In this document: positions 2 through 26,033 of the stretch, piece by piece | How positions within the stretch are numbered: position 1 is the stretch's first letter | Layout: each line of letters begins with the position of its first letter | Origin: a virus | Lineage: Duplodnaviria; Heunggongvirae; Uroviricota; Caudoviricetes | DNA length: 27,545 nt | Virus record (IMG/VR): IMGVR_UViG_3300045996_000667 | Location: 1 to 27,545 of that record | Strand: one strand, 5' to 3' | Program-made: the position numbers and the translations under genes | The notes under the pieces: generated by a model | Database searches by the model: none | Told to the model about the DNA's origin: nothing | The model's input: only the letters and a program-made list of their open reading frames with translations

Positions 2-196
2 AATTCGAATAGAACCTACCTCGAATGCCCATGCTGTGGGTGCGAGGGAGCTGAGTCAGACGCTGACGGCCTGTTCAACGACGGCCAGGAACTCATCTGC
101 GGATGCCCTGGCTGGGTGACAGCCGACGGAGATGGCGATGAAAGCTGGGCGTGGATCAATAACGGCGACGAGCCGTGCCAGCAATGTGAATTCTGA
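2..196 (+). CDS. 5'-truncated Cys-rich hypothetical protein
   Basis: Frame 2 is open from the window edge (..LECPCCGC..CGC..PCQQCEF). Its TGA (194-196) lies inside the TCT-GAG codons of the unit 1 motif. Confidence 0.7.
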   Translation, partial: NSNRTYLECPCCGCEGAESDADGLFNDGQELICGCPGWVTADGDGDESWAWINNGDEPCQQCEF

Positions 197-383
197 GGAG
201 TTCTTCGCAGCTCTATCTAGGCGCGCTATTCTGTGGTGTCCGACTTGTGATCAACTGACAGCAGTACGTCACATTGGTGCAGACTTAATAGACACCGACA
301 AAAACTGGCAAGTAGGGCAGTGCGAAGAATGCGGCGAGAGAGCCAGTTGGTCCGAATGGCAGTTCGAAGAATTGGCCATATGA
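186..383 (+). CDS. EFFxAL-tagged Zn-ribbon microprotein, unit 1
   Basis: GTG start; NSEEFFAAL, then CPTC..CEEC. Confidence 0.8.
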   Translation: MNSEEFFAALSRRAILWCPTCDQLTAVRHIGADLIDTDKNWQVGQCEECGERASWSEWQFEELAI

Positions 384-628
384 GCAACGACGAGTTCTGG
401 AACGAGCTTCTCGGTCTAAAAATCTTCTGTGTCGCTTGTGCTCTTAGGACAACACATTTACCAAGCCCTCTACCTACGCTGTCTCCGTATAAGGACTACA
501 ACCGCTACGACTGCTCACGCTGCAACTGTCGGTGGGTTTTAGTTAAGGGCGAAGAGGTCCTGCACCAGGAAAGTGGATGGAAACACGACCTCGACTTCGG
601 AGCAGCCTTGGAGTTGCCTCAAGAATGA
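380..628 (+). CDS. EFFxAL-tagged Zn-ribbon microprotein, unit 2
   Basis: ATGA overlap; MSNDEFWNEL, CVAC..CSRC. Confidence 0.8.
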   Translation: MSNDEFWNELLGLKIFCVACALRTTHLPSPLPTLSPYKDYNRYDCSRCNCRWVLVKGEEVLHQESGWKHDLDFGAALELPQE

Positions 629-918
629 ACTGGGACTACCACAAGCAGCGACTACTGGACGGCAAGACCACGTCATTTCGGCCTAAGGGCAACAGCATGG
701 CTCCTCGCATCCTGTCCGGCCAGCTCGTCGTCCTCGAGCCGGCGCACGAGACGTACATTGAGGTTGGAGACGTAGTCTTCTGCAAGGTCGGTGGCAACTT
801 CTATGTCCACCTTGTCAAGGCTATCCAGGATGGCAGGTTCCTCATAGCAAACAACAGAGGCCACATCAACGGCTGGACCAAGGCCGTCTATGGCAAGCTG
901 AAACTCCTGATGCCATGA
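625..918 (+). CDS. Peptidase S24/S26-like (LexA/signal peptidase fold) small protein
   Basis: GNSMAPRILSGQLVVL matches the G-x-S-M-x-P-x-I-x-x-G catalytic-Ser motif; YVHLVK is the candidate general-base region; ATGA overlaps at both ends. Confidence 0.7.
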   Translation: MNWDYHKQRLLDGKTTSFRPKGNSMAPRILSGQLVVLEPAHETYIEVGDVVFCKVGGNFYVHLVKAIQDGRFLIANNRGHINGWTKAVYGKLKLLMP

Positions 919-1319
919 AAGTGCTCTGTTGTGGTAGCAGGCACTGGGACCTTCGAACACCTGTTGAGGCGGCCCTGTCAGACCTGAAGGACTATGACGG
1001 CGGCGATGACCGTGATCTGTTCTTCAAGTCGCTGGACGTAACTCACATCGAGATAGTCCATGGCAACGCTCTCGGCGCCGATTCGCTCTGCGACTACTAC
1101 GCTCGAAAGCTAGGTTACGTTGTCCATCGACACCGTGCAGACTGGAAAAAGCACGGCAAGGCTGCCGGTCCTATCAGGAACCAGGAAATGCTTGATAAGC
1201 ATCCTGACATCTGCCTGGTGCTGGCATTCTCTTGGAATCTGTCAGAAAGCAAAGGCACGGCTGACATGGTTCGCAGGGCCACGAAGAAAGGCATCCCTGT
1301 CAAGGTTATCAGTGGCTGA
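915..1319 (+). CDS. SLOG-superfamily (DUF2493/YspA-like) protein
   Basis: VLCCGSR, IVHGNALGAD, ADWKKHGKAAGPIRNQEM, GTADMV..A.KKGIPV motifs. Confidence 0.85.
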   Translation: MKVLCCGSRHWDLRTPVEAALSDLKDYDGGDDRDLFFKSLDVTHIEIVHGNALGADSLCDYYARKLGYVVHRHRADWKKHGKAAGPIRNQEMLDKHPDICLVLAFSWNLSESKGTADMVRRATKKGIPVKVISG

Positions 1320-1524
1320 CAGCGACGAGTTCTTCTTCAGTCTAATAGATCCTGTCGTCAATGTCTCACACGTTGAAGCATACTGCCCACGCTGCAAGGC
1401 TATGGCAGATCATGACAAAAAGACCTACGGAAATCCTCTAAGGTGTGCATACCTTTGCCGCCGCTGTGGGCTTCTAGAAGACTTGCCAAACTCGAAATTC
1501 CTAACATATGGACAGTTCTACTAG
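1312..1524 (+). CDS. EFFxAL-tagged Zn-ribbon microprotein, unit 3
   Basis: GTG start; ADSDEFFFSL, CPRC..CRRC. Confidence 0.8.
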   Translation: MADSDEFFFSLIDPVVNVSHVEAYCPRCKAMADHDKKTYGNPLRCAYLCRRCGLLEDLPNSKFLTYGQFY

Positions 1525-1735
1525 TTCCGAGGAATTCTTCGGCGCATTGGCGATTAGGCTGAACGTCAGTTGCCCAAGATGTGACGATCCGCCTCTTAGT
1601 AGCACTGTCGTCGTTATCGACCGCTACAACGCGCTAGACCCAGATGGCAAGCAGGTTTACCCAAAGGTGCAGTGCGAGAAATGCCGCTTCGTAGGTGTAG
1701 TTCCAGAGTCTTGGCTGGAGGAACGGCGTGTCTGA
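1508..1735 (+). CDS. EFFxAL-tagged Zn-ribbon microprotein, unit 4
   Basis: SSEEFFGAL, CPRC..CEKC. Confidence 0.8.
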   Translation: MDSSTSSEEFFGALAIRLNVSCPRCDDPPLSSTVVVIDRYNALDPDGKQVYPKVQCEKCRFVGVVPESWLEERRV

Positions 1736-1925
1736 TAACGAGGAATTCTGGGGCGCGCTAGTTGGTATAGATCTGAACTGCTTAAAGTGCGACAGCGTCA
1801 CGAAGCACATTGAAGCAGAAAATATCCAAGACTGGCATACGTTCCGGCCATACCGTTGCACAGTGTGCAAAAAGGGTGAGCGGCTTTACCCGCTCGACCC
1901 CGAAAATCAGAAATGGTGGCGCTAG
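1728..1925 (+). CDS. EFFxAL-tagged Zn-ribbon microprotein, unit 5
   Basis: GGAGG RBS, GTG start; DNEEFWGAL, CLKC..CTVC; its stop overlaps the integrase stop (CTAG). Confidence 0.8.
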   Translation: MSDNEEFWGALVGIDLNCLKCDSVTKHIEAENIQDWHTFRPYRCTVCKKGERLYPLDPENQKWWR

Positions 1926-3037
1926 GCCATAGCCTTCTGGAACGTGTCGAGCCTCTTGGCCGCATCTTCTAGCATGGCCTGGTCGACGATCGTATAGCGC
2001 CGATAGACGTCCTCAGTCTTATGGCCAACCATCTGCATGGCCGCCTTCCTGCTCACTCCTGCCAGCTCGAGATTCCTGACAGCCGTCCTCCTGAAGTCGT
2101 GCAGGAACCTTTCAAGTCCTGCCGCCGCGCAGGCATCATTCCAAGCCTTGTAGAACGACCTGATAGGCTCGCCAGACGACCTGACGAATACGTATGGCAC
2201 CTTCTTCTTGGTCTTCTCCTCGATCTTGTCGACGTACTCGCGCTGCGCTGTCAGGACCCTGCGAAGTTCATCAGTGAACATGAACGTCCTGCCAACCTTC
2301 TTGTCCTTGCCCTGCCCGACGTACAGCAGCAACTGGCCGTTGTCGAAATCGACGTCAGACCACTTTCTGGTGAGCAATTCGGACTTGACGCGCCAACCTG
2401 TGATGTAGGCCACGTCCAGAACAGGGTGATAGCGCTTGCCGAGGTGTTTTTTGATGGCAAGAACCTCGTCCCGGCTGAAGAATCCGTGCCTGACGTTGTT
2501 TTCTGGCAGCTTGTCCATGAGCGGCACGGTCGTGATCTTGCCGGCTTTGAACGCCAGCCTCATTCCGCGCTTCAGTGCGGCGCATTCTCGGTTAATCGTG
2601 GCCGAGGCTGCCCCAGCTTCCTTCCTGGCCACCTGATAGCGCACGACAGCGGCCGTCGTTATCTGGGAGGCCCGCCAGCCGCCGAAGAACGCTGCCAGCT
2701 TGGGCATGGCGGTGTGCGTGAGTCTGTAGAGGCTCTGCCTGCGGTCCTTGAGGGTGTAGTCCTGCTTGACGAGGCTCAGGCAATCCTCGAAGGTCGTGCT
2801 GCGCTTGTCCGTGATCGGCACGCCGTCCTTGCGGGACTGATTCCGGTCGATCAGCAGCTGCATCGCCTTGCCGTAGTCGTCCGTGTCGGTCGTCTCGGTC
2901 TTGTACTCGCCGCTGACGTAGTACCCGAGGCTGTAATTGGGCGATTCTCGCATTTCGCCCGTCTTCCGGTCGCGCCATTTCGCCTTGAACACTCGTCCGA
3001 GGCCCCACGCCGACGCTTTTTTGGCTTTTCTTGGCAT
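1922..3037 (-). CDS. int: Tyrosine recombinase / phage integrase
   Basis: Catalytic set: R (TGWR..ELL), HDFRR, GHKT, YRRY; N-terminal arm-binding-like region; AGGAG RBS. Confidence 0.93.
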   Translation of the reverse strand: MPRKAKKASAWGLGRVFKAKWRDRKTGEMRESPNYSLGYYVSGEYKTETTDTDDYGKAMQLLIDRNQSRKDGVPITDKRSTTFEDCLSLVKQDYTLKDRRQSLYRLTHTAMPKLAAFFGGWRASQITTAAVVRYQVARKEAGAASATINRECAALKRGMRLAFKAGKITTVPLMDKLPENNVRHGFFSRDEVLAIKKHLGKRYHPVLDVAYITGWRVKSELLTRKWSDVDFDNGQLLLYVGQGKDKKVGRTFMFTDELRRVLTAQREYVDKIEEKTKKKVPYVFVRSSGEPIRSFYKAWNDACAAAGLERFLHDFRRTAVRNLELAGVSRKAAMQMVGHKTEDVYRRYTIVDQAMLEDAAKRLDTFQKAMA

Positions 3038-3068
3038 CCTGGCTCCTACGCGTTCGGGAATTTCACGC

Positions 3069-3272
3069 TCGCTGCGTTGCTACGCGCATTGCACGTGTTA
3101 TTTTACCCCAAAACACACACAAAATGTGTGTGTGCGCTTCGGATTCCTAGAATTTCTTTAAAGGAACACAAAACACACAAGAATTTTGTGTTGTTTACGG
3201 GATTTTGAGTCCTGTTGAGAAGTGAGAATATGCCCTAAAATCGCCAAAATCAAGCAAATTCGCTGCGTTGCT
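3069..3272. other. attP-like region
   Basis: 13-bp direct repeats TCGCTGCGTTGCT (3069-3081, 3260-3272) flank an AT-rich segment with inverted repeats (3113-3133, 3165-3192). The minus strand reads GGACTCAAAATCCC at 3199-3212, resembling a tRNA-Leu(CAA) anticodon stem-loop. Confidence 0.65.
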
Positions 3273-3346
3273 CGCTGTGTTTACCAGCTTTCGCGCTACG
3301 ATCGCCCCAGAATGCAGCGAGCAGCCGAAACAGGCCCGAACTGAGG

Positions 3347-3352
3347 TATAAT
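3347..3352 (+). promoter_or_regulatory. Putative -10 element for the tRNA
   Basis: Perfect TATAAT ending 9 nt before the tRNA 5' end; no clear -35. Confidence 0.5.
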
Positions 3353-3360
3353 TGTGCTTT

Positions 3361-3447
3361 GGCGGTGTGGCGGAACTGGCAGACGCAGGAGACTCAAAAC
3401 CTCCCGACCTCACGGTCATGTGGGTTCGATTCCCACCACCGCCACCA
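3361..3447 (+). tRNA. tRNA-Leu(CAA), class II, CCA encoded
   Basis: Acceptor GGCGGTG/CACCGCC, D arm GCG/CGC, anticodon loop CTCAAAA, variable arm GACC-TCAC-GGTC, T arm GTGGG-TTCGATT-CCCAC, then A+CCA. A-C mismatch at the loop-closing pair. Confidence 0.93.
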
Positions 3448-3468
3448 CCTAACGCGTTAGGGCAACGA

Positions 3469-3528
3469 ATGAGCAAACAACAGATACCATTGTGCAAGGG
3501 CGGCTGGCAACAGAATGGACAAGTCTGA
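3469..3528 (+). CDS. 19-aa leader/remnant ORF ending in the unit 6 motif
   Basis: MSKQQIPLCKGGWQQNGQV; TGA lies inside TCT-GAC of the next unit. Confidence 0.35.
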   Translation: MSKQQIPLCKGGWQQNGQV

Positions 3529-3751
3529 CGAGTTCTTCGGAGCGCTAGCACCTGGCACGCCGCAATACTGCCACCACTGCGAGCGCGTGACAAAGTGGCT
3601 CAGGCTGACAGCCACGGAGAGATATAATTACGGTTCGTCATACACGGCGTGGTCAAAACTCATATGCAGCGAGCACGAAACGTCGTATGGACACCACGTT
3701 TACGGCTTGCCGGACGTGATCTATGAAGTTGACATGTCTTACGGCAACTGA
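3515..3751 (+). CDS. EFFxAL-tagged Zn-ribbon microprotein, unit 6
   Basis: MDKSDEFFGAL, CHHC..CSEH. Confidence 0.8.
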   Translation: MDKSDEFFGALAPGTPQYCHHCERVTKWLRLTATERYNYGSSYTAWSKLICSEHETSYGHHVYGLPDVIYEVDMSYGN

Positions 3752-3771
3752 CACTGACACACGTAACACAC

Positions 3772-3951
3772 ATGGATAGCGTGCAAGCTGACAAGTCGGC
3801 CGAGTTCTTCGAGGCCTTGAGGGAAACCATCATCAAGCGCTGTTCGGGTTGCAAGGAACAAACAGAGCACTCCTATAGTTATGGAAAACATTACGTCTGG
3901 TACGAATGCGAACGCTGTCATGCCCTCACAACAGAACACAGACCAGGCTGA
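3772..3951 (+). CDS. EFFxAL-tagged Zn-ribbon microprotein, unit 7 (59 aa, not in ORF track)
   Basis: Hand translation: MDSVQADKSAEFFEAL..CSGC..CERC. Confidence 0.8.
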   Translation: MDSVQADKSAEFFEALRETIIKRCSGCKEQTEHSYSYGKHYVWYECERCHALTTEHRPG

Positions 3952-4129
3952 GGAGTTCTTCGCAGCGCTGGCCGAAATTGTCAGACAACATTGCCTGGAC
4001 TGCGAAGCAACGGTAGACCATTACACCTATCAGCTAGCTGACAGAACAAGGCATGTGTGCAGATTCTGCGGACTGATGGTGGAGCGATTCAAGAATGGCG
4101 ACGTCACCTTCACCAGAAACAGCGGCTGA
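3920..4129 (+). CDS. EFFxAL-tagged Zn-ribbon microprotein, unit 8
   Basis: QAEEFFAAL, CLDC..CRFC. Confidence 0.78.
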   Translation: MPSQQNTDQAEEFFAALAEIVRQHCLDCEATVDHYTYQLADRTRHVCRFCGLMVERFKNGDVTFTRNSG

Positions 4130-4331
4130 CAGGTCGGCCGAGTTCTTTCAGGCGCTGGAGCCGTTATACCGTCTCTACTGCTATTTTGGCTGCTGCATGG
4201 ACACACCTCACAGGATTACAGGCCCTTTCACCGACCCGATCTTCCACCAAGACATTGTCTATGTTGGTTGCACACTGTGCAACGGTACTGACTATTGGCC
4301 CCGCAAGACGCTTGAGCGCCATGCCATCTGA
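4095..4331 (+). CDS. EFFxAL-tagged Zn-ribbon microprotein, unit 9
   Basis: DRSAEFFQAL, CYFGC..CTLC. Confidence 0.78.
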   Translation: MATSPSPETAADRSAEFFQALEPLYRLYCYFGCCMDTPHRITGPFTDPIFHQDIVYVGCTLCNGTDYWPRKTLERHAI

Positions 4332-4518
4332 TAGGTCTGAGGAGTTCTTTCAGGCTCTTGAGTCGCGCTGGATGCTCTACTGCTTTGGGGTCTGCCGTAA
4401 ACAGCGGCAGCACGTATCTAAAGACGTGGTCCAAGGTACCCACACGATGAAATGCCTCACATGCGGCTACCTAGAAGAATGGCATGAGGATGTCCTCTGT
4501 GCAGACTACCAAATCTGA
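4321..4518 (+). CDS. EFFxAL-tagged Zn-ribbon microprotein, unit 10
   Basis: MPSDRSEEFFQAL, CFGVC..CLTC. Confidence 0.8.
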   Translation: MPSDRSEEFFQALESRWMLYCFGVCRKQRQHVSKDVVQGTHTMKCLTCGYLEEWHEDVLCADYQI

Positions 4519-4708
4519 GGAGTTCTTCCAGGCGCTGTCAAAGATGGCAACCTTGTACTGCGATGGGTGCAATTGCGCAACGGCATGGCGTTACCTCGGC
4601 CCAGAACCTGTCTACAAGCATGTAGGCTGGATAGAAGCCGAATGCACACGGTGCAACGCTGTAGCTCCTTGGCTTGACGTCACCTTTGACCGCAATGGCA
4701 TATCCTGA
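4499..4708 (+). CDS. EFFxAL-tagged Zn-ribbon microprotein, unit 11
   Basis: GTG start after GAGGA (alternative ATG at 4484 or 4490); TKSEEFFQAL, CDGC..CTRC. Confidence 0.78.
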   Translation: MQTTKSEEFFQALSKMATLYCDGCNCATAWRYLGPEPVYKHVGWIEAECTRCNAVAPWLDVTFDRNGIS

Positions 4709-4913
4709 CGACTTCTTCGAGGCGCTGAACATCCTGAACGGCCTGACAGAACGCTGTCAGGAATGCGGGCGCGCTATCAGCGAGGACGAATTCAGAGTGA
4801 ACTGGCAAAGCTGCGAGCTCTGCTTGGACGCCGCCATCGAAGAGTACTACCTAGCAGAAGCTGCCAAGGCTGAGAGGGAATATGAGCAACTCAAAGAGTT
4901 TGGGCAGATCTAA
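4695..4913 (+). CDS. EFFxAL-tagged Zn-ribbon microprotein, unit 12
   Basis: MAYPDDFFEAL, CQEC..CELC, acidic helical tail. Confidence 0.8.
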   Translation: MAYPDDFFEALNILNGLTERCQECGRAISEDEFRVNWQSCELCLDAAIEEYYLAEAAKAEREYEQLKEFGQI

Positions 4914-5109
4914 AGAGTTCTTTCAGGCGCTAAGACCGATGGCCCTGCTGTCGTCATCTTTCCACCCATGCGGAGATTCCGTATATGGGCGCTCAAAGAT
5001 GATTATCACAGACGAGAGAGACGACCGGTACACATACTGCGTTTGCCCACAGTGCGGCTACAAGGACGGATGGTACCATGACACTGTCGAGAAGAACCTG
5101 TGCCAGTAG
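4882..5109 (+). CDS. EFFxAL-tagged Zn-ribbon microprotein, unit 13
   Basis: RSKEFFQAL, HPC..CPQC. Confidence 0.75.
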   Translation: MSNSKSLGRSKEFFQALRPMALLSSSFHPCGDSVYGRSKMIITDERDDRYTYCVCPQCGYKDGWYHDTVEKNLCQ

Positions 5110-5294
5110 ACAAGGCTGAAGAGTTCTTCCAGGCGCTATCAACGTTGGCGAGACTAAACTGCCCTTACTGCGGGCCGCAACGCACCGTAGCTAAGCTGGA
5201 ACCACACGATGCAGCCACGACAGTAGGACAATGCATGTCTTGTCGAAAAACATCTATCTGGTTTAACTATTCTTGGGATCGCTTTGCCCTCTAA
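5100..5294 (+). CDS. EFFxAL-tagged Zn-ribbon microprotein, unit 14
   Basis: GTG start; DKAEEFFQAL, CPYC..CMSC. Confidence 0.8.
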   Translation: MPVDKAEEFFQALSTLARLNCPYCGPQRTVAKLEPHDAATTVGQCMSCRKTSIWFNYSWDRFAL

Positions 5295-5523
5295 AGCCGA
5301 AGAGTTCTTCCAGGCGCTGGACATGATCTGGGCCGACTGCGATCGGTGCAACCCTAAGACAAGGCGAGAAGGAAGCCACACCTGGTTGAGCGTAATAGGT
5401 TGGTACGCAAATGCGATGTGGGCTAAGACTGAGTGCCAGACATGCGGCAACATCGTATGGCACAGCGCCGGCTACATCGAAGCTCGCAAAAATGAACAAC
5501 CTCGAGGTCGGGTAAGGGCATGA
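5284..5523 (+). CDS. EFFxAL-tagged Zn-ribbon microprotein, unit 15
   Basis: TTG start; SKAEEFFQAL, CDRC..CQTC. Confidence 0.8.
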   Translation: MPSKAEEFFQALDMIWADCDRCNPKTRREGSHTWLSVIGWYANAMWAKTECQTCGNIVWHSAGYIEARKNEQPRGRVRA

Positions 5524-5654
5524 TCAATCTCCTAATATTCCTGCTCAGGTTCTACGACGTTCTACTCGTTGGACTGGCAGGCTCGTTCATTCTGGCCGTC
5601 ATCTGGTCGGCAGCCTCATGGCTGGCAGGACTGATAACTTATGTCCAAGACTGA
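5520..5654 (+). CDS. Small membrane protein (44 aa, not in ORF track)
   Basis: MINLLIFLLRFYDVLLVGLAGSFILAVIWSAASWLAGLITYVQD; ATGA overlap; stop lies inside the unit 16 motif. Confidence 0.7.
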   Translation: MINLLIFLLRFYDVLLVGLAGSFILAVIWSAASWLAGLITYVQD

Positions 5655-5880
5655 AGAGTTCTTCGAGGCGCTGTCAATGCGGTTCAGTGGTGCTCACGGC
5701 CAGTGCGCGCCAACACTAGCAGAATCTGGCGGCGTTATCTGGACTGTCGACATGGCCAGCTATCAGGCTGTCAAGCATGAATTACTTGACAACGTACTAG
5801 TCAAGTGCTCTCGCTGCAAGCGATGGTGCCGCACAACAAAATCTTACGTCGATGATAGACTCAGCACACATGCAGTCTGA
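5641..5880 (+). CDS. EFFxAL-tagged Zn-binding microprotein, unit 16
   Basis: MSKTEEFFEAL, HGQC..CSRC. Confidence 0.8.
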   Translation: MSKTEEFFEALSMRFSGAHGQCAPTLAESGGVIWTVDMASYQAVKHELLDNVLVKCSRCKRWCRTTKSYVDDRLSTHAV

Positions 5881-6157
5881 AGAGTTCTTCGCAGCCCTGA
5901 CAGGCACCATGTGCGGCATCTGTTATGCCCCGATAGTGCCTACCGAGAAGCCGTTGGGTGGCAAAGGCTACTACTTCGTATACGTCTGGGACCACGATTT
6001 CATCCCTCCGAACTGTAAGAAGGACGAGGATTCCTATTGTCAACTCCCGATGTGTCCAGGCTGCTATGGCTCGTGGGGAATGACCTCGGCAGGAAATATA
6101 AGATCTTGGGAACTGTGGGTAGTCTCAAGGAGGAAAGAACTTGGCCTCAAAGGCTGA
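5870..6157 (+). CDS. EFFxAL-tagged Zn-ribbon microprotein, unit 17
   Basis: MQSEEFFAAL, CGIC..CPGC. Confidence 0.8.
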   Translation: MQSEEFFAALTGTMCGICYAPIVPTEKPLGGKGYYFVYVWDHDFIPPNCKKDEDSYCQLPMCPGCYGSWGMTSAGNIRSWELWVVSRRKELGLKG

Positions 6158-6371
6158 AGAATTCTTCGAGGCTTTGCACACTGTGCAATCGACGTCCACT
6201 TGTCCATCCTGCAAGGCCACAGAAATGGCTAGGCCATACAGGCATATCACTGGACAATGCGCCTGGGAGTTATTCTGCCAGTGCGGCGAGAGTTTTCAGT
6301 CATCTCCTCGGGGAACATACTACAAAGACCTAAAAGCCATAGGCCACAGGCTACCAGACGATCATGACTGA
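6141..6371 (+). CDS. EFFxAL-tagged Zn-ribbon microprotein, unit 18
   Basis: AGGAGG RBS, TTG start; SKAEEFFEAL, CPSC..CQC. Confidence 0.8.
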   Translation: MASKAEEFFEALHTVQSTSTCPSCKATEMARPYRHITGQCAWELFCQCGESFQSSPRGTYYKDLKAIGHRLPDDHD

Positions 6372-6564
6372 CAAGTCTCGAGAGTTCTTCAAGGCTATCG
6401 GCGTTGTCGTGCTTGAACTGGAATGCCCATCGTGCGACTCTGAACAACTACATGACTGCGAGCCGCTTCCCGAAGGCGTCTGGGCAGTGATCTGTCAACA
6501 ATGCGGCAATGACTGGAAGAGCTACTACATAGCCCAGAAGAAGTACGATGAAGTATCGCTGTGA
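6364..6564 (+). CDS. EFFxAL-tagged Zn-ribbon microprotein, unit 19
   Basis: MTDKSREFFKAI, CPSC..CQQC. Confidence 0.8.
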   Translation: MTDKSREFFKAIGVVVLELECPSCDSEQLHDCEPLPEGVWAVICQQCGNDWKSYYIAQKKYDEVSL

Positions 6565-6706
6565 GAACGGACAGCTCGTGCCAGATCCTGACGGCGATTG
6601 GATAAGGACTGAGATTACTATCGCCACTGGCACAGCTATCAGGCCGCCAGGACTCGACGGACAGAGGATTGTCGTATGGACGCTAAAGAGTTCTGGGACT
6701 CACTGA
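6548..6706 (+). CDS. Untagged hypothetical microprotein (52 aa, not in ORF track)
   Basis: MKYRCENGQLVPDPDGDW..; fills the gap between units 19 and 20. Confidence 0.55.
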   Translation: MKYRCENGQLVPDPDGDWIRTEITIATGTAIRPPGLDGQRIVVWTLKSSGTH

Positions 6707-6903
6707 TACCGCCCACCATCGAGCTGGCGATGTGTGGATGTAGCAGTCCCAGCAAGCCTGCCGAGTGTGTGCCAGTCAGGCAAGAGATGGTATGGTTCTG
6801 GAGGGCGACGTGCAAGAGCTGCGGCTGGGAGTACGACTGCCAGCCCGGTGGCGGCTACGCACAAAGGCTGGCTAGAGATGGATACATCCTCCCTAACGAC
6901 TGA
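6676..6903 (+). CDS. EFFxAL-tagged Zn-ribbon microprotein, unit 20
   Basis: MDAKEFWDSL, CGC..CKSC. Confidence 0.75.
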   Translation: MDAKEFWDSLIPPTIELAMCGCSSPSKPAECVPVRQEMVWFWRATCKSCGWEYDCQPGGGYAQRLARDGYILPND

Positions 6904-7183
6904 AGAATTCTTCGAAGCTGTAGGTGTTGTCAGGTGCATAGCCTGCAGTCAGTTCACCAATAACGGCAAAAGCATGTGCTACGGCTGCTTTATTCCCTTT
7001 ATGCCCTACGAGCGGCTGTTAGAGCTGAAAGAGCGACGAGATGCCTCTTTCTATGCGGCCCCTGACCTCCGATACCGATACTTTCCAGTGCCGTCGACAG
7101 ACCCAACGCCGGCGCGCCCAGAAGCTGACGGACTCGAGAACGCGAGCACGGAACACCCCACCGCATCAGGCGGCCATGATTGA
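6878..7183 (+). CDS. EFFxAL-tagged Zn-ribbon microprotein, unit 21 (3' part antisense to the methyltransferase)
   Basis: LTTEEFFEAV, CIAC..CYGC; the tail is probably read-through into the inserted gene. Confidence 0.65.
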   Translation: MDTSSLTTEEFFEAVGVVRCIACSQFTNNGKSMCYGCFIPFMPYERLLELKERRDASFYAAPDLRYRYFPVPSTDPTPARPEADGLENASTEHPTASGGHD

Positions 7184-7727
7184 CAGCGTACCTAATGTTC
7201 ACCAGAGGGAAATGACGGCCCAGCAACTCTCGCAGCTGCTCGGTCCTGTAATGCCTCTTATGGTCATGGTAGGGACGTGTCAGGAAATCACCGTTTGGCG
7301 TCGTCATCAGGAACCTGCCGCCAGGCCTCAGCACGCGGGCGACATTCGCCACGAAGGCCTCGTCAGCCTCCACGTGCTCCAACACCTCCACCGCCACCAC
7401 CACGTCGAACGACCGCGCCGGCAGCCGCGTATCGGTCATGTCGTCAATGACGTAGTCGTAGACGTTCGTTCTGGAGGCGATGACCTGCCGACGAATGGCC
7501 TCCGTCGCCCCAAGGTCCAGCCGCTCCTGCAGCTCGGACTGGCGAGGAATGTCGGAGATGATCACCCGACTGCGCAGGCCGATGGTATACTGGCTGCGGC
7601 GACCGCCGACGTCCAGGATTCGCAGAGGGCCGTCTGCCTCCATCTCTCGCAGCATCCTCGAAACACGCCAGTACAGCGGGTGCTCGACAGGGCGAACCAC
7701 ACGGCGCAACGTCTCGTATCGCGTCAT
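6999..7727 (-). CDS. Class I SAM-dependent methyltransferase
   Basis: Motif I RILDVGG, FDVVVAVEVLEHV, RVLRPGGRFLMTTPNG; opposite strand and visibly more GC-rich than the array. Confidence 0.88.
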   Translation of the reverse strand: MTRYETLRRVVRPVEHPLYWRVSRMLREMEADGPLRILDVGGRRSQYTIGLRSRVIISDIPRQSELQERLDLGATEAIRRQVIASRTNVYDYVIDDMTDTRLPARSFDVVVAVEVLEHVEADEAFVANVARVLRPGGRFLMTTPNGDFLTRPYHDHKRHYRTEQLRELLGRHFPLVNIRYAVNHGRLMRWGVPCSRSRVRQLLGAPALGLSTALESIGIGGQGPHRKRHLVALSALTAARRA

Positions 7728-7784
7728 AGCTCTAGCATATGCCGATTTTGGCTACCTGACAACACTTACTAGTGTATTCCTTTC

Positions 7785-8021
7785 ATGTCAACATCTGAGG
7801 AGTTCTTTCACGCGCTCGCTCCGTCCGTTATAGGTGCGCACGACGCCTGTCAGGGCAGCTTCGAACATCGCGTGTTCTGGATTATCGACACTGTCAGCTA
7901 TCATGACGTCAGGGATGGACAAGCCATGCTGACCTGCAGCAATTGTGGCCAGCAGGTATGGGCCGCCAAGGCTTGGATCAACGATAAGCTGGACCGAACA
8001 ACGCGACATGACCAATTCTGA
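7785..8021 (+). CDS. EFFxAL-tagged Zn-binding microprotein, unit 22 (paralog of unit 16)
   Basis: MSTSEEFFHAL, GAHDAC..CSNC. Confidence 0.8.
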   Translation: MSTSEEFFHALAPSVIGAHDACQGSFEHRVFWIIDTVSYHDVRDGQAMLTCSNCGQQVWAAKAWINDKLDRTTRHDQF

Positions 8022-8211
8022 GGAGTTCTTCCAGGCCCTGACACCGACTACTATGGCTGTCTGCGATAACGACCGCTCGTGCGGCACCACCTTGCACGCC
8101 TGCACGCCACTTCCCGATTCCTTTTGGGAGGCTAGGTGCCTAAAATGCGGGGCTATGTGGGTCAGCAGCCTTGTCATTCATGAGGCGCTCCTAGAGGAGG
8201 GCAAGATTTGA
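8008..8211 (+). CDS. EFFxAL-tagged Zn-ribbon microprotein, unit 23
   Basis: MTNSEEFFQAL, CDNDRSC..CLKC. Confidence 0.8.
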   Translation: MTNSEEFFQALTPTTMAVCDNDRSCGTTLHACTPLPDSFWEARCLKCGAMWVSSLVIHEALLEEGKI

Positions 8212-8381
8212 CAAAATCTGAGGAATTCTTTCAGGCGCTCACAGGCCCGGTAGTCGAAGCATCATGCCACCACTGCCAGGTTAACAGAATGTTCGTTTGC
8301 ACACATGTTCTAGGACCGCAATGGGAAGCGACCTGCCAAGTGTGCGGTAACGTTATCGCCTTCAGTGTTACTGATGACTAA
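8208..8381 (+). CDS. EFFxAL-tagged Zn-ribbon microprotein, unit 24 (57 aa, not in ORF track)
   Basis: GAGGAGG RBS, TTG start; TKSEEFFQALTGPVV..CHHC..CQVC. Confidence 0.8.
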   Translation: MTKSEEFFQALTGPVVEASCHHCQVNRMFVCTHVLGPQWEATCQVCGNVIAFSVTDD

Positions 8382-8463
8382 ATCTGAGGAATTCTTTCAG
8401 GCGATCACAGGTCCAGTAGTCGAGGCTCACTGCACCGGCTGCCTGCCACGCAGAAGGGATTGA
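8374..8463 (+). pseudogene. Truncated unit 25 (29 aa; second CxxC lost)
   Basis: MTKSEEFFQAITGPVVEAHCTGCLPRRRD*; paralog of units 24 and 26. Confidence 0.6.
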
Positions 8464-8467
8464 GCGA

Positions 8468-8596
8468 ATGACTGAATGCGAGCCGGGATACCACGAATGG
8501 GAGTCCGGCGCCGGGTGGGGGACCATCATCGGCGTCAGTCGCTGTAAGCGTTGCGGTCGAGTGTCCCGCGCGTCTGATTTCTCCGGCGATGACTAA
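8468..8596 (+). CDS. Untagged Cys/His microprotein (42 aa)
   Basis: MTECEPGYHEW..CKRCG..; stop lies inside the unit 26 leader. Confidence 0.6.
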   Translation: MTECEPGYHEWESGAGWGTIIGVSRCKRCGRVSRASDFSGDD

Positions 8597-8789
8597 ATCT
8601 GAGGAATTCTTCCAGTCGCTAACAGGCCCAGTAGTCGTGGCGCACTGCATCGTCTGCGTCCAGATCGTCAAGTTCGTTTGCACACATGTGCAAGGCTCCA
8701 CATGGAGTGCTACCTGCCAGGACTGCGGCAACGTTTGGGAAAGCTTCTTCACAATCGAGCGTAAATTGATAAAGTCAGGTCAGATTTGA
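8589..8789 (+). CDS. EFFxAL-tagged Zn-ribbon microprotein, unit 26
   Basis: MTKSEEFFQSLTGPVV..CIVC..CQDC. Confidence 0.8.
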   Translation: MTKSEEFFQSLTGPVVVAHCIVCVQIVKFVCTHVQGSTWSATCQDCGNVWESFFTIERKLIKSGQI

Positions 8790-9120
8790 CCACTTTGTCA
8801 AGCACTTTTTGCCCGACCAGTTCGCAACTTGCCAGTTGGCCAGCCCCATACTCCACTTCGCACCCCAAAATCAACATAAAAATGGCCATTTTAGCCATTT
8901 CACCCCGATTTTTCCCATATTTCAAGCCTCTCGTAACATTCCCATATAATTTTACAGGTCGATCGCACTAGGGAAACCGCCTGCCCTTACCCGGCCTCGA
9001 GGTCGATGGCTGCCGTCGGGCTCCCTTACTATTTCGCCGGCTACTTACCTTTGTATAGTTACTCACAGCTGGTGAGTGCCAGGCCTTTTGGTTAGTGCGG
9101 ACTAGCATAGGCTGATAGTG

Positions 9121-15687: not shown

Positions 15688-15950
15688 ACTATCTCGACAT
15701 TCAGATTCCAGGCGAGAAGATCAGCCACACCGACCTGACGGCAGACGCGCTGTTTTTCTCAGGGCGCACCACTGGCTGCTCATGTTGCTCGGACAGCTTC
15801 GACTTCAGCGAAACCTCCAAGGTGCAAGCCTTGGAACTGGCTGACCAGTGGATCAAGGAGCTGCGCGCACGGCTCAAGCAAGCCTGCGAGGTCAAGCGCA
15901 AGATTCGCGCGGTCAAGGTGGCAGACTGGGACAAGGCTAGGAGCACATGA
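15678..15950 (+). CDS. Hypothetical protein
   Basis: GTG start; GCSCCS. Confidence 0.65.
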   Translation: MSIDYLDIQIPGEKISHTDLTADALFFSGRTTGCSCCSDSFDFSETSKVQALELADQWIKELRARLKQACEVKRKIRAVKVADWDKARST

Positions 15951-16351
15951 ACTGGCTGACATTCCTCACCGCCCTGACAGAACAGGAGCGCGAAGAGCTC
16001 AAGGCCACCCTAGCCGACGCTGACAAGAATGCTGAGTTCTTTGATGCGCTGGCAGCCAATGATGCCCTGACCGCAGCTGAGCGCATCATTCGGCGGCGCG
16101 AGGGCAAGATACCGGCTATCAAGGCTGTCAGAGAGCGCACACGGCTAGGTCTGAAAGAAGCTAAGGACTTGGTCGAGCGCTGCGCACCTGACGACCTGTA
16201 CACCTTACCAGCCTGTCCTAAGTGTGGCTGCTGGAAAGAGCGCGTCAAGCCGGTAGCGCCATTGTCGCCAAATGAGTCACGGTATAACGGCAGGTTCCAT
16301 AAGTTTCATTGCCTGTCCTGTGACTGGATCTACGAGGCCAAGTACGTCTAG
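15947..16351 (+). CDS. Ribosomal bL12 (L7/L12) C-terminal-like domain + Zn ribbon, with internal EFFDAL motif
   Basis: KIPAIKAVRERTRLGLKEAKDLVE matches the bL12 CTD signature; CPKC..CLSC. Confidence 0.8.
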   Translation: MNWLTFLTALTEQEREELKATLADADKNAEFFDALAANDALTAAERIIRRREGKIPAIKAVRERTRLGLKEAKDLVERCAPDDLYTLPACPKCGCWKERVKPVAPLSPNESRYNGRFHKFHCLSCDWIYEAKYV

Positions 16352-16532
16352 GCCGCTTTGCACACGTGTTCAAGATTCGGCGTTCATTGCACAAAGTGCA
16401 AACAGTGCCAAGGCTCACAACCTAGATAGCCTCTAAAACGCTCAGGATGCGTTATGAGCGCATCTCAGGACTACCCGCACCCTAACCATTGCCCGACAGT
16501 TTAGAGGGCCTATAAGTCATGCTAGGAGGTTT

Positions 16533-20414: not shown

Positions 20415-20589
20415 CAAACAGGTCGAATACCGGATTCAGTTCCTGAACATGGCGTATTGGAAGGATATCGCCAAGCCCTACAAGCGCCAGTCACCAGCTG
20501 TCAGGTTGGCTAACAGACTGGCAAGAAATGGCGACGTTACTCGCGTCGTCAAGGTCGAAACAACCGTTGTCGTTGTCCACTTCAAGTAA
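20407..20589 (+). CDS. Hypothetical protein
   Basis: 8-nt overlap start. Confidence 0.65.
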   Translation: MADKQVEYRIQFLNMAYWKDIAKPYKRQSPAVRLANRLARNGDVTRVVKVETTVVVVHFK

Positions 20590-20596
20590 CGCTGAC

Positions 20597-20968
20597 ATGG
20601 CTGACAAACTGTTCATACCGACCATCGGCACGCAACTTGTGCTCGCAGAGCCGTGGACCTTCAAGGTCTACAGCGAATATCGGAACGCCGACATCCTGTC
20701 AATGGTCAACCATGTCCAGCAACGCTACGGCGTTCACCACGTTAACAACCTGACACTGCCTGTCGGAACTGTTCTGACGGTCGACCGCATCTACATCAAG
20801 AAAGGCATGCCCGACTTCGATAGCATCACGTTCAGGGCCAGCGACTACGCCACTAACAGCGTTGACGAATTCTTCGCAGCGCTGGCAGACTTCAAGATCA
20901 AGAAGTCTATCAGGTTCTGGGTGAAGCTGGCAGACGCCAACACCATCGTCTACAAATCACAGGAGTAA
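20597..20968 (+). CDS. Phage hypothetical protein with internal DEFFAAL motif
   Basis: LFIPTIG..W.F..Y.E.RN..RFWVKL.D.N; motif at 20864-20884. Confidence 0.75.
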   Translation: MADKLFIPTIGTQLVLAEPWTFKVYSEYRNADILSMVNHVQQRYGVHHVNNLTLPVGTVLTVDRIYIKKGMPDFDSITFRASDYATNSVDEFFAALADFKIKKSIRFWVKLADANTIVYKSQE

Positions 20969-24114: not shown

Positions 24115-24287
24115 CCTACTGCGCCATGTGTCACCACGAGTACCTGAAGACTCGGCCGCGTTGCCCCGCCTGCGGCCACGTCCCAGCAAACAAGGAGAAC
24201 CGCACAATCAACGAGCAGGACGACGACTTCACAAGACAGCTCAGTCTGGTAGCGAGTTCGGTCAATCGAAGGAGCCAGCAGCGATGA
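24105..24287 (+). CDS. Zn-ribbon microprotein (untagged)
   Basis: GGAGG RBS; CAMC..CPAC. Confidence 0.7.
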   Translation: MPLTYCAMCHHEYLKTRPRCPACGHVPANKENRTINEQDDDFTRQLSLVASSVNRRSQQR

Positions 24288-25147
24288 GTGCTCGTGCAAA
24301 TTGGAAAGGCAGCCTGTCCATCGGTCTTCTCAATATCCCCGTAGCCGTGTTCACGGCGACGGACGACGTCAACGACTTGCAGCTTAGGCTGCTCCACTCG
24401 AAGTGCGCAAACCCGATCAATCAGCCGAGGAAGTGCGTGCCCTGCGGCGTGGACGTCACGACGGACGACATCGTCAAGGGCTACGAGATCGCCAAGGGTC
24501 AGTTCATCCAGCTCTCCAACGAGGAACTGGCCAACATCAAACCAACGTCCACGCACACCATCAACGTCGACAGCTTCACGCCCGTGAAGGACATCGACCT
24601 GATCTACTTCGACCGGCCCTATTACCTCGGGCCGAACGGACCTGTCGCCTACAAGCCCTACAAGGCTCTCCGCGACGGCATGAAGCGAACCGGCAAGGTA
24701 GCGCTCGGCGTCATCACCATGTATGGCAGGGACCATCTCATGGCCATCCGTCCCGAAGGCAGCGGCCTTGTGATGCAGCGCATCCGTGAACGCCGCGAGG
24801 TGCGTGGCATCGAGATCCTGCCAGGATACGAGGAACTGGCCTCGGCTGCCGATGGGCCGCACGTCGCCATGGTGTCCCAGATCATCGACAGCATGGAGCA
24901 GGAGTTCGATCCGGCTCTCCATGAGGACAGCTACCGGCGAGAGCTGCTCAACCTGATCGAGTCCAAGGTCGCTGGCATCGAATACACCGCGCCAGTCGTC
25001 AAGGAAGCGCCGCCGACCGAGGACATCATGGAGGCTCTGACCAAGACGCTGGAGCAAGCCAAGTCCGGCAAGACCAAAAAGCGCATGGCGAAGGCCGAAG
25101 AGCCGGCGGCCGCGAAGAAGTCCAAGCGCAAGGCCGTAGCGGCCTAA
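24284..25147 (+). CDS. ku: Ku DNA end-binding protein (NHEJ)
   Basis: WKGSLSIGLLNIPV, IVKGYE, IDLIYFDRPYYL, D.YR..L..LI..K..G, basic tail. Confidence 0.95.
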   Translation: MSARANWKGSLSIGLLNIPVAVFTATDDVNDLQLRLLHSKCANPINQPRKCVPCGVDVTTDDIVKGYEIAKGQFIQLSNEELANIKPTSTHTINVDSFTPVKDIDLIYFDRPYYLGPNGPVAYKPYKALRDGMKRTGKVALGVITMYGRDHLMAIRPEGSGLVMQRIRERREVRGIEILPGYEELASAADGPHVAMVSQIIDSMEQEFDPALHEDSYRRELLNLIESKVAGIEYTAPVVKEAPPTEDIMEALTKTLEQAKSGKTKKRMAKAEEPAAAKKSKRKAVAA

Positions 25148-25721: not shown

Positions 25722-26033
25722 ATGGAACCTGTTAAGCTCGGACGCATCATCAAGGGTGACAACGCTGGCAGAGACGCTGTCCATATTGCCATAGCTCCTG
25801 TCAGGGCCGCCCAGATCCTCCAACCAGGCGAACGAATCGGCTTCGTAGATGAGGACCAGCTCCTCGTCGGCCGCGTGACTGACTACGTTGGCATCGTTGA
25901 CCCGTTCATGGGCAAGCCTGTCATGCCCGGACAGGACTTCTACATGTGCCTGTTCCCAGGAACCACCACGTCGCTCACGCACGTGTGGAAACACCCGTCG
26001 TTCAAGGAAGAGGGCGAGCGTGTACTCCAGTAG
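25722..26033 (+). CDS. Conserved phage hypothetical protein, N-terminal half (RDAVHIA..GIVDPF..SL.HVW.HP)
   Basis: AGGAG RBS; recalled family pattern. Confidence 0.75.
   Translation: MEPVKLGRIIKGDNAGRDAVHIAIAPVRAAQILQPGERIGFVDEDQLLVGRVTDYVGIVDPFMGKPVMPGQDFYMCLFPGTTTSLTHVWKHPSFKEEGERVLQ

Follow-up and report, generated by a model that had tools for sequence, protein, structure and literature searches.

A family of small zinc-ribbon proteins with a shared N-terminal helix in a tailed-phage genome: candidate diversified binders

The window analyzed here is a 27,545-nucleotide stretch of DNA (positions 1 to 27,545 of IMG/VR record IMGVR_UViG_3300045996_000667) from a phage whose circular genome is about 124 kb. 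Our analysis confirmed the presence of all 26 small co-directional ORFs that the original prediction had described on the + strand between 186 and 8789, each bearing a short shared peptide, the tag. Its consensus is x-(K/R)-(S/A/T)-(E/D)-E-F-(F/W)-x-A-L, or S-E-E-F-F-x-A-L in short form; the pattern [ED]F[FW]x[AS][LIV] fits 25 units, and the remaining one, unit 2 (NDEFWNEL), carries E where the pattern calls for Ala or Ser. Since an in-frame ATG, GTG or TTG lies 2-13 codons upstream of the tag in 26/26 units, the tag is N-terminal, as had been proposed. At the DNA level the motif GARTTYTTYNNNGCNNT occurs 23 times in the window, always on the + strand, against 0.01 copies expected from shuffles. 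A DNA palindrome, GAAGAATTCTTC, was considered as the source of this motif; it is present in 3 copies and does not explain it. The S-E-E start of the tag is a generic helix-capping pattern. The array and the non-unit features within it are as follows.

186-383, + strand: unit 1, 65 aa, tag SEEFFAAL; missing from the alternative haplotype
380-628, + strand: unit 2, 82 aa, tag NDEFWNEL; other-haplotype allele 65% identical
625-918, + strand: stand-alone S24 (LexA/UmuD-type) peptidase domain, not a unit; protein the same in both haplotypes
915-1319, + strand: YspA/cpYpsA-related SLOG protein (PF10686), not a unit
1312-1524, + strand: unit 3, 70 aa, tag SDEFFFSL
1508-1735, + strand: unit 4, 75 aa, tag SEEFFGAL
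1728-1925, + strand: unit 5, 65 aa, tag NEEFWGAL
1922-3037, - strand: tyrosine integrase, not a unit; interrupts the array
3361-3447, + strand: tRNA-Leu(CAA), not a unit; adjoins the integrase; metagenome contigs end here
3515-3751, + strand: unit 6, 78 aa, tag SDEFFGAL; CxxH-type second knuckle
3781-3951, + strand: unit 7, 56 aa, tag SAEFFEAL; alternative start 3772
3920-4129, + strand: unit 8, 69 aa, tag AEEFFAAL; alternative start 3881
4095-4331, + strand: unit 9, 78 aa, tag SAEFFQAL
4321-4518, + strand: unit 10, 65 aa, tag SEEFFQAL
4490-4708, + strand: unit 11, 72 aa, tag SEEFFQAL
4695-4913, + strand: unit 12, 72 aa, tag PDDFFEAL; most acidic of the units
4882-5109, + strand: unit 13, 75 aa, tag SKEFFQAL; alternative start 4900; degenerate first knuckle
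5100-5294, + strand: unit 14, 64 aa, tag AEEFFQAL; sub-threshold DUF6510 match
5284-5523, + strand: unit 15, 79 aa, tag AEEFFQAL
5641-5880, + strand: unit 16, 79 aa, tag TEEFFEAL; degenerate first knuckle
5852-6157, + strand: unit 17, 101 aa, tag SEEFFAAL; alternative start 5870; long inter-knuckle insert
6141-6371, + strand: unit 18, 76 aa, tag AEEFFEAL
6364-6564, + strand: unit 19, 66 aa, tag SREFFKAI
6676-6903, + strand: unit 20, 75 aa, tag AKEFWDSL
6878-7183, + strand: unit 21, 101 aa, tag TEEFFEAV; tail overlaps the opposite-strand methyltransferase gene
6999-7727, - strand: class I SAM methyltransferase, not a unit; interrupts the array
7785-8021, + strand: unit 22, 78 aa, tag SEEFFHAL
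8008-8211, + strand: unit 23, 67 aa, tag SEEFFQAL
8208-8381, + strand: unit 24, 57 aa, tag SEEFFQAL-TGP
8374-8596, + strand: unit 25, tag and first knuckle at 8374-8463 (29 aa), CxxCG knuckle at 8468-8596 in another frame
8589-8789, + strand: unit 26, 66 aa, tag SEEFFQSL-TGP

Within a unit the order of elements is helix, 6-9 residues, CPxC, 15-45 residues and CxxCG, with the distance from tag to first knuckle lying between 6 and 9 residues in 20/25 units. The original prediction of two Cys/His pairs in nearly all members holds for the pairs in general, but the canonical double CxxC is found in 17 of the 25 complete units and the remainder are Cys/His variants. The ORFs stay open for 55-100 codons with the Cys pairs in register; the exception is unit 25, which looks frameshifted since its second knuckle lies in another frame, and run X3 contigs on 8296-8458 and 8446-8713 show no differences there. 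The units have a mean pI of 5.7 and a mean net charge of -2.8, with pI above 7 in 5/25. A fixed helix-knuckle spacing of 6-9 residues would also suit a helix packed on the ribbon.

Unit starts overlap the upstream ORF in 22 of 26 cases, by 4-35 nt, most units are without a Shine-Dalgarno site, and the stop codon of the upstream gene often falls within the tag codons (TCT GAR). Sites resembling promoters or terminators show no enrichment within the array. The overlaps and this lack of internal signals suggest that the units would be translated by coupling from a polycistronic mRNA. The integrase beside the tRNA-Leu gene indicates that the phage is probably temperate, and its host is probably a member of the soil Acidobacteriota. 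Accessory genes for a NUDIX-domain protein and a nicotinamide phosphoribosyltransferase lie just upstream in the circular map. The phage has recognizable genes for the portal, large terminase and major head protein; the head module occupies 93.8-98.8 kb on the strand opposite to the units, and no Pfam family matches the 261-aa ORF that lies between the genes for portal and capsid.

The paralogues are old, with a median identity of 28%, saturated synonymous sites and a dS of 0.92 even in the closest pair. The first Phe of the tag is nevertheless present in 36/36 copies, and the helix is far more conserved than every other non-cysteine position. The codons used for these residues vary synonymously in roughly genomic proportions at Glu (GAG/GAA 24/10), the second Phe (TTC/TTT 21/10), Ala and Leu. 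Retention of residues in old paralogues with varied synonymous codons points to selection on the peptide itself, in agreement with what had been predicted, and on codon-level evidence purifying selection on the peptide maintains the helix residues. Among the Ser codons of the tag 13/20 are TCT, versus 16% genome-wide, because the TGA stop of the upstream gene overlaps this codon, and the first tag Phe is encoded by TTC in every copy. Where measurable, dN is lower than dS. The bodies show no sign of positive selection, with a dN/dS near 0.4 in the closest paralogue pair. They had been described as mostly unalignable, which did not bear out: the spacing to the first knuckle is regular in most units, and a profile built without the tag still matches 24 units, including three absent from its building set. 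By alignment, the bodies are one domain family, expanded through duplication and divergence. Of the proposed combination of a constant peptide and a variable Zn-stabilized body, the constancy and the diverged ribbon are retained, and the idea of unrelated bodies is not.

The family extends beyond the array. Family-profile matches number 37 across the 125.7-kb record, so that by this measure the phage genome holds at least 37 copies, and four further carriers of the tag lie downstream in the window.

15947-16351, + strand: related protein in which residues 28-35 form an internal tag (NAEFFDAL), followed by a fragment of the L7/L12 C-terminal domain and then a CxxC...CxxC ribbon
20528-20968, + strand: 146-aa protein with internal tag VDEFFAAL
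26020-26283, + strand: 87-aa protein lacking a zinc ribbon, N-terminal tag SEEFFDAL
26634-27008, + strand: 124-aa protein lacking a zinc ribbon, N-terminal tag GEFWDAL-TGP

By estimate, about 0.03 chance matches would be expected against the two N-terminal carriers without a ribbon. Both could stem from tag recombination instead of functional selection.

Soil metagenomes contain a one-unit indel, one strongly diverged unit allele and one tag-recombined contig. The two contig ends represent two haplotypes of one locus, unit 1 being present in one and missing from the other; between them unit 2 differs with a dN of 0.28, whereas the adjacent S24 peptidase has a dN of 0. In run X2, one contig fuses the tag at 20861, in the protein encoded at 20528-20968, to the unit body at genome position 33470. 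Natural populations gain, lose and replace units at tag boundaries. The tag is not drifting, as homologues without it and a dN/dS of about 1 would have indicated: six homologues were found beyond the phage genome, arranged in pairs on tiny metagenome contigs, and all six carry it. Neither 416 Acidobacteriota genomes nor cultured phages yielded a tagged homologue, and a tblastn search with unit 11 only against 50,697 phage records (E up to 1) gave a single weak match, in Sphingobium phage Lacusarx. This is a genuine family that has not been described before.

Structure prediction assigns the bodies to a Cys4 zinc-ribbon fold, in which two knuckles would sit on a beta-hairpin with putative zinc binding and 4-5 predicted strands. 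None of the 26 units reaches the gathering score of a Pfam family. Unit 14 (5100-5294) matches DUF6510 (PF20120) at 23.6 bits (E 4.7e-5), below the 26.4-bit cut-off, and an E of up to 0.1 to this family is seen in 2/26 units only; PHROG matches are sporadic or to families without a function. Structure and profile searches returned generic zinc ribbons and SH3-like barrels and indicated no target. The best yet weak matches are generic Cys4 ribbons (PDB 8q5b, Rpb9/TFIIS) and small C(P)xCG proteins, all below significance (E 0.005-0.1), which share two CxxC knuckles, often CPxC and CxxCG, and 3-5 strands in 50-70 residues; the N-terminal EEFFxAL helix is found in the units and not in these families.

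We propose, at nearly even chances, that a lineage-specific birth-and-death expansion has its main block in the array and that its products are diversified binders with a shared helical handle. One small domain, expanded to at least 37 copies, would in each case carry a Cys4 zinc ribbon (CPxC ... CxxCG) behind an N-capped amphipathic helix (x-K/R-S-E-E-F-F-x-A-L). The helix may dock through its Phe-Phe-Ala-Leu face to one common phage or host protein, and the variable ribbon hairpin would give each copy its own specificity. The low pI and negative charge of the units favor a protein binder over a DNA binder, and we infer that these small, mostly acidic modules bind protein and are produced early in infection. 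The whole set could then serve as a diversified host-takeover or counter-defense kit, as an adaptor or decoy library that may be directed at host defenses; context and analogy suggest the counter-defense role.

Alternatively, the helix may be a structural cap, conserved since it holds the fold together, on a family of zinc-ribbon regulators or nucleic-acid binders with no common partner, such as specific transcription factors or RNA-binding proteins. We regard this as unlikely, though it merits serious consideration. The narrow helix-knuckle spacing, the alignment of the entire unit as a single domain and the AlphaFold2 placement of the helix, at moderate to good confidence, are all consistent with it, and zinc ribbons commonly bind nucleic acid; Iyer et al. 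(2021, PMC7824862) suggest transcription-factor or structural DNA-binding roles for the zinc-ribbon expansion of phage G. On the other hand, AlphaFold2 models the tagged unit (helix at residues 3-9 plus ribbon) with a pLDDT of 87.9 and the ribbon without the helix with a pLDDT of 94.4 and the same strands, and since the ribbon is predicted equally well alone, the helix looks like an appendage and not a core element in these models. The degree of helix conservation relative to other non-cysteine positions and the occurrence of the helix on two ribbon-less proteins also argue against a cap, and the acidity of the units is unusual for DNA-binding proteins.

A second possibility, which we consider quite doubtful, is that the tag is a capsid-targeting signal like that of T4 (CTS), by which units would be loaded into the prohead, injected with the DNA and act before phage expression. 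The layout is that of the T4 propeptide, a portable N-terminal sequence of 10 residues on diverse anti-restriction proteins (PMC3012670; PMC9026906); the tag is strictly N-terminal in the units, it occurs on unrelated bodies, and units turn over fast. The T4 propeptide, however, ends in an L/I-x-E site for cleavage by the prohead protease, and the units have neither a conserved cleavage motif nor a conserved Glu after the tag, where the residues following Leu are S, A, T, E, R, N, D, H or G. The units are acidic, not basic. Early-type genes surround them and the head module is distant; a non-exhaustive search of that module recognized no T4-type protease (gp21-type) or scaffold (gp22-type), and 37 different cargo species would be unprecedented.

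The units could also be precursor peptides of a modified natural product (RiPP), with the tag as leader and a Cys-rich core, but this is very improbable: many tandem copies, each with a conserved N-terminal stretch ahead of a variable Cys-rich part, and a methyltransferase gene within the array would fit, whereas the conserved stretch has only 8 residues, the "core" is a 50-90-residue domain predicted as a zinc ribbon (pLDDT 94), and the neighbors are an S24 peptidase, a SLOG protein, an integrase, a tRNA and a class I methyltransferase, with no maturase, cyclase, radical-SAM enzyme, protease-transporter or other RiPP enzyme in the array or its flanks. That the ORFs are untranslated, the repeat being an element of the DNA or RNA, as the TCT excess, the invariant TTC and the upstream stop within the tag might suggest, is scarcely credible given the genome-like synonymous variation, the long open frames with Cys pairs in register, the low dN relative to dS, the retention of the peptide by homologues in other DNA and the stop-codon overlap that accounts for the TCT bias.

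The reading as diversified binders with a shared handle can be set beside known systems. The E-F-F-x-A core resembles the eukaryotic, VAP-binding FFAT motif (EFFDAxE), which has an acidic residue at position 7 and a eukaryotic VAP/MSP partner; in the tag position 7 is variable, the virus, a tailed phage, has overlapping genes of bacterial type, and we regard the likeness as a coincidence. The original prediction knew of no described system with such a layout, and two precedents revise this. In the T4 internal proteins IPI, IPII and IPIII and their T-even relatives, a CTS of about 10 residues is the sole conserved part, can be transferred to foreign proteins, and precedes bodies whose variation is linked to an arms race with host restriction (PMC3012670; PMC9026906). 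The likeness is one of layout, with no homology claimed: a short constant N-terminal peptide on small diverse phage proteins, positioned 2-13 codons after the start in all units and carried by two non-ribbon proteins as well. The T4 bodies are a handful of unrelated folds, whereas the tagged units are one zinc-ribbon family of 37 copies, acidic and among early-type genes. The second precedent is Bacillus phage G, which infects a host of a different phylum and for which the part of Iyer et al. (2021, PMC7824862) compared here does not mention a constant N-terminal tag. That account describes a lineage-specific expansion of about 35 copies of one zinc ribbon, and the two phages are alike in that one small zinc ribbon is present as tens of paralogues within one large genome.

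Our analysis of the array at positions 186-8789 establishes a large, old and actively turning-over family of small Cys4 zinc ribbons whose N-terminal helix is under selection acting on the peptide. The window makes up the first 27.5 kb of an IMG/VR virus record of 125,713 bases, and the 26 tagged small ORFs reported in the original prediction are all present, on the + strand. The motif common to all 26 is (S/A/T/N/P)-(E/D/A/K/R)-(E/D)-F-(F/W)-x-(A/S/E)-(L/I/V), and an in-frame ATG, GTG or TTG lies 2-13 codons 5′ of it in every ORF, so that the tag is always N-terminal; the preceding residue is mostly Lys or Arg (M-T-K-S-E-E-F-F...). At the nucleotide level, the degenerate motif GARTTYTTYNNNGCNNT occurs 23 times in the window, always on the + strand, as against 0.01 times in shuffled sequence. 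A conserved DNA palindrome, GAAGAATTCTTC (GAA GAA TTC TTC, with an EcoRI site), was considered and rejected, because only three exact copies use the palindrome codons. The Glu and Phe codons vary, with GAG:GAA at 24:10 for the tag Glu and TTC:TTT at 21:10 for the second Phe, both near genome usage, and the Ala and Leu codons of the tag vary too. Two nucleotide-level biases are left over: TCT makes up 13 of the 20 tag Ser codons compared with 16% genome-wide, an excess explained by the TGA stop of the preceding gene, which TCT-GAR contains, and the first Phe is TTC without exception.

The alignment of the 26 units (A1) reveals a common plan, in which the tag is followed by 6-9 residues, a first Cys/His knuckle (often CPxC), 15-45 residues, CxxCG and, a few positions on, an aromatic residue; the tag-to-knuckle distance is 6-9 residues in 20 of the 25 complete units. 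A profile built from A1 finds 37 copies in the phage genome, 11 of them outside the array (including members at about 33.5, 34.5, 46.2, 46.4, 58.5, 72.8, 114.5 and 124-125.7 kb), and its tag-less version, A2, still matches 24 units, three of which were absent from its building set. To call the bodies 'otherwise mostly unalignable', as was done at first, is therefore too strong; on these alignments, the units form a single domain family, and the bodies behind the tag are related. None of the units reaches the cut-off of any Pfam family. The best match is to DUF6510, at 23.6 bits for a single unit where 26.4 would be required, and PHROGs gave nothing informative; DUF6510 members sought for a profile comparison were found neither in 151 genomes nor in the controls. 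For unit 1 (186-383), AlphaFold2 with A1 predicts (pLDDT 87.9) that the tag forms a helix, at residues 3-9, and that four to five strands and a short helix at the C-terminus follow; without the tag (A2) it predicts the same strands (pLDDT 94.4). In these predictions the ribbon is independent of the helix, and the helix is predicted with less certainty. Searches by fold and by profile (PDB, AlphaFold DB clusters, BFVD, VIA-align wide, a PDB sequence profile and the ESM Atlas) returned nothing more specific than generic small zinc ribbons, SH3/Tudor-like barrels or unnamed clusters, which scored as common arrangements do. A homodimer prediction for unit 1 scored 0.12 (mark 0.42) and weighs neither way.

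The paralogues are old, to judge from their divergence: the median identity between pairs is 28%, units 24 and 26, which are closest to each other, have a dN of 0.375 and a dS of 0.92, and dS is saturated in most pairs. Against these diverged bodies, the residues of the tag persist, and all 36 copies examined retain its first Phe. When 1.84 billion representative proteins were searched exhaustively with the profile, 31 matched at E up to 0.001; beside the phage's own units, these include six small proteins from other DNA. All six carry (D)K-S-(E/D)-E-F-F-x-A-L, while the other matches whose sequences were inspected are multi-ribbon proteins without the tag. Homologues thus keep the tag, which shows no drift, so that the refuting condition named in the original prediction does not hold. 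On contigs of 946 and 1814 nt these six proteins occur in pairs, and on ENA contigs of 567-701 nt they have other small genes as neighbours; relatives, too, thus have tandem units. The co-occurring arrays that had been envisaged elsewhere did not appear: searches of IMG/VR with patterns of tandem tags in DNA yielded no true array, and the first 120 matches listed from metagenome contigs were all chance matches, with no array among them. The pattern K-S-E-E-F-F-x-A-L had three matches in IMG/VR, internal and by chance; a word-based homologue search returned this genome's own proteins only, one unit as query found no family member in 50,697 phage records, and a literature search for tag strings found nothing.

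Within the phage, the tag also heads two proteins that lack a ribbon (26020-26283 and 26634-27008), where by our own estimate about 0.03 N-terminal matches are expected by chance. In a further protein (15947-16351), an internal tag and a zinc ribbon are combined with 29 residues from the L7/L12 C-terminal domain (PF00542, E 1.2e-8). This fusion prompted the idea that the tag mimics the N-terminal domain of L7/L12, which was rejected in view of the lack of any match to an L12 N-terminal family at E up to 10. Two longer ORFs, at G000:C1:42257 (+) and 72868 (-) on the whole record, end in tag-like sequence and stop almost at once (REFWDSLTK-stop, DKNDEFFGALE-stop), and look like remnants of units fused in frame to an upstream gene. 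The window also encodes a Ku70/Ku80-type beta-barrel protein (24128-25147; PF02735, E 7.5e-39) and contains a candidate 94-nt tRNA-Met called by ARAGORN (16400-16493, -) that is below the threshold of the Rfam tRNA model.

The gene layout fits polycistronic transcription with translational coupling: 22 of the 26 units begin within the preceding ORF, with overlaps of 4-35 nt, Shine-Dalgarno-like sequence is found at few of the starts, and promoter- and terminator-like sites show no enrichment within the array. No RNA dataset holding the array was found among the sequencing runs listed. Five features break up the array:

625-918, stand-alone S24 (LexA/UmuD-type) peptidase of 97 aa without a DNA-binding domain, inside the array
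915-1319, YspA-type SLOG protein, inside the array
1922-3037, - strand, tyrosine integrase, interrupting the array
3361-3447, tRNA-Leu(CAA), adjoining the integrase
6999-7727, - strand, class I methyltransferase, interrupting the array

The 3′ end of the methyltransferase gene is overlapped by 185 nt by the long C-terminal tail of unit 21 (6878-7183, +). Between units 15 and 16 lies a strongly hydrophobic ORF of 44 aa (5520-5654), probably a small membrane protein, and between units 19 and 20 an ORF of 52 aa (6548-6706). Unit 25 ends prematurely after 29 residues, with the second knuckle encoded in another frame (8468-8596); contigs of the soil-metagenome run X3 on 8296-8458 and 8446-8713 show zero differences. 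The integrase-tRNA intergenic region (3085-3215) holds AC/GT-rich inverted repeats, ACACACACAAAATGTGTGTGTG and CACAAAACACACAAGAATTTTGTGTTGTTT, which may serve as operators or as recombination-directionality sites.

The last 1.4 kb of the record repeats its first 1.6 kb, with 98% identity between positions 1-189 and 124334-124522 and 87% between 389-1567 and 124535-125713. A diverged repeat at both ends implies a circular genome of about 124.3 kb, and not a linear fragment 83% complete; the ends of the record are two versions of one locus, the circle having been assembled across two coexisting haplotypes. Unit 1 is missing from the second version, the gap running from just past the end of the preceding gene up to the next tag. 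Directly 5′ of the array, both versions (2-196 and G000:C1:124218-124556) encode a Cys-rich small protein without the tag (ECPCCGCEG...CGCPGW...CQQC), the C-terminus of which differs between haplotypes because the next unit differs. The genes shared by the two versions compare as follows, the S24 peptidase being identical in protein despite its diverged neighbours:

Divergence between the two versions of the array start
S24 peptidase: protein identity 100%, dN 0, dS 0.11, dN/dS 0
SLOG protein: protein identity 92%, dN 0.047, dS 0.32, dN/dS 0.15
Unit 3: protein identity 83%, dN 0.126, dS 0.44, dN/dS 0.29
Unit 2: protein identity 65%, dN 0.28, dS saturated, dN/dS not measurable

Contigs of four soil-metagenome studies carry the array. 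Two of these studies have the main block (3370-8981) in identical form, along with a 12-13-kb contig that joins the second version to the integrase and tRNA; in one of these two, run X1, the first version is also present, on a short contig of low depth, so both haplotypes coexist in that sample. One contig of run X2 carries a fusion, in which the stretch that precedes the internal tag at 20861 continues into the body of the unit found at 33470. Both 30-nt flanks of this junction were verified against the genome, and an assembly artefact at k=31 is discounted because the shared stretch is only about 14-18 nt, though the contig is a single one. Together, these comparisons point to units that are gained, lost, replaced and fused at the tag-coding sequence. 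A diversity-generating retroelement was rejected as the source of variation, since haplotype differences are not adenine-specific and no reverse transcriptase was noticed. Just upstream of the array on the circular map (G000:C1:121844-124134) are a 298-aa NUDIX-domain protein and a nicotinamide phosphoribosyltransferase, likely an NAD salvage pair; with the S24 and SLOG genes, they make the surroundings of the array an accessory neighbourhood.

The portal, large terminase and major head protein are encoded at 93.8-98.8 kb on the - strand, and by large terminase the nearest cultured relative is Tunturiibacter phage Tunturi_4 (Acidobacteriota; 35.6% identity), a phage in which the family is not represented. 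The 5′ half of the tRNA-Leu(CAA) has 18 exact matches, 15 of them tRNA genes of Acidobacteriota or Vicinamibacterales genomes; the 3′ half has none. Metagenome contigs break within this tRNA, at 3370-3399, and many other contigs share that stretch alone, as an attachment site would produce; next to the integrase, the tRNA is probably the attachment site of a temperate phage. The family was not found in the 416 Acidobacteriota genomes searched (the 15 that share the tRNA half and 401 sampled), which is not proof of its absence. Mimicry of a host N-terminus by the tag was also rejected: EEFFxA[L/F] matches are scattered through 64 of 301 Acidobacteriota genomes (a sample that includes one unpublished genome, G039, from which nothing is concluded), and at 30 loci examined they are internal to unrelated ORFs or in non-coding frames. 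The family also bears on the phages that infect Acidobacteriota, a phylum abundant in soil; to our knowledge, these phages are barely known.

By general helix chemistry, the tag would be a capped amphipathic helix: Ser would act as N-cap, a pair of acidic residues would lie at the positive end of the dipole, and one face, made up of Phe-Phe-x-Ala-Leu, would be hydrophobic. We tentatively propose, at a little short of an even chance, that the units are a diversified set of small protein binders, which share one handle and serve in host takeover or counter-defence. This assessment draws on the evidence for a shared contact surface, on acidity and on the accessory neighbourhood. A contact surface is favoured over a fold element because the helix does not vary although the surface on which it could pack does so freely, because the predicted ribbon does not need the helix, and because the tag heads two ribbon-less proteins. 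The units are mostly acidic (mean pI 5.7), which argues for protein rather than DNA targets. The same observations make it somewhat unlikely that the tag is a structural helix on regulatory or nucleic-acid-binding ribbons: the ribbon is predicted with higher pLDDT once the tag is removed, and acidity tells against DNA binding. A packaging signal resembling the CTS of T4 is improbable, since its cleavage motif is absent here. That the units are RiPP precursors seems very improbable, and an untranslated repeat, rather than a family selected on its peptide, is scarcely credible. A more specific version of the binder proposal, which we regard as unlikely, is that the EEFFxAL helix is an address label for one putative hub (a host machine, a phage protease or chaperone, or the prohead core) to which each ribbon would bring a different host protein, such as a defence factor. 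In that case the ribbons, 37 or more in number, would form a heritable adaptor library, acquiring new specificities via unit gain, loss and recombination at tag-coding DNA.

The array of the original prediction is thus confirmed, and its interpretation is borne out in part. The facts are solid and unusual in scale, and their importance hinges on a putative single reader of the tag. If the helix does dock all copies to one partner, the phage would possess a simple, evolvable protein arsenal, with one handle and many specificity modules shuffled by recombination at the handle's coding sequence, and the helix plus zinc ribbon, at about 60 residues, would offer a compact natural scaffold for studying the diversification of tiny binders. 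On a modest reading as well, 37 paralogues, 26 of them within about 8.6 kb of a 124-kb genome, are an unusually large investment that needs explanation. The family is undescribed, and the kinds of system to which it belongs, lineage-specific zinc-ribbon expansions and constant-tag protein sets, are known. For the expansion itself, the nearest precedent is the zinc ribbon present in about 35 copies in Bacillus phage G (PMC7824862); no sequence link to it was detected with one unit as query, in phage records that may not include phage G. The nearest functional precedent for a constant N-terminal peptide on diverse bodies is the set of T4 internal proteins (PMC3012670, PMC9026906). The units likewise join a constant peptide to diverse bodies, but they lack the cleavage motif, and packaging is here only hypothetical. 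If all copies do dock to one partner, the principle seen in the T4 internal proteins would hold in a different phage lineage too, and for a much larger family.
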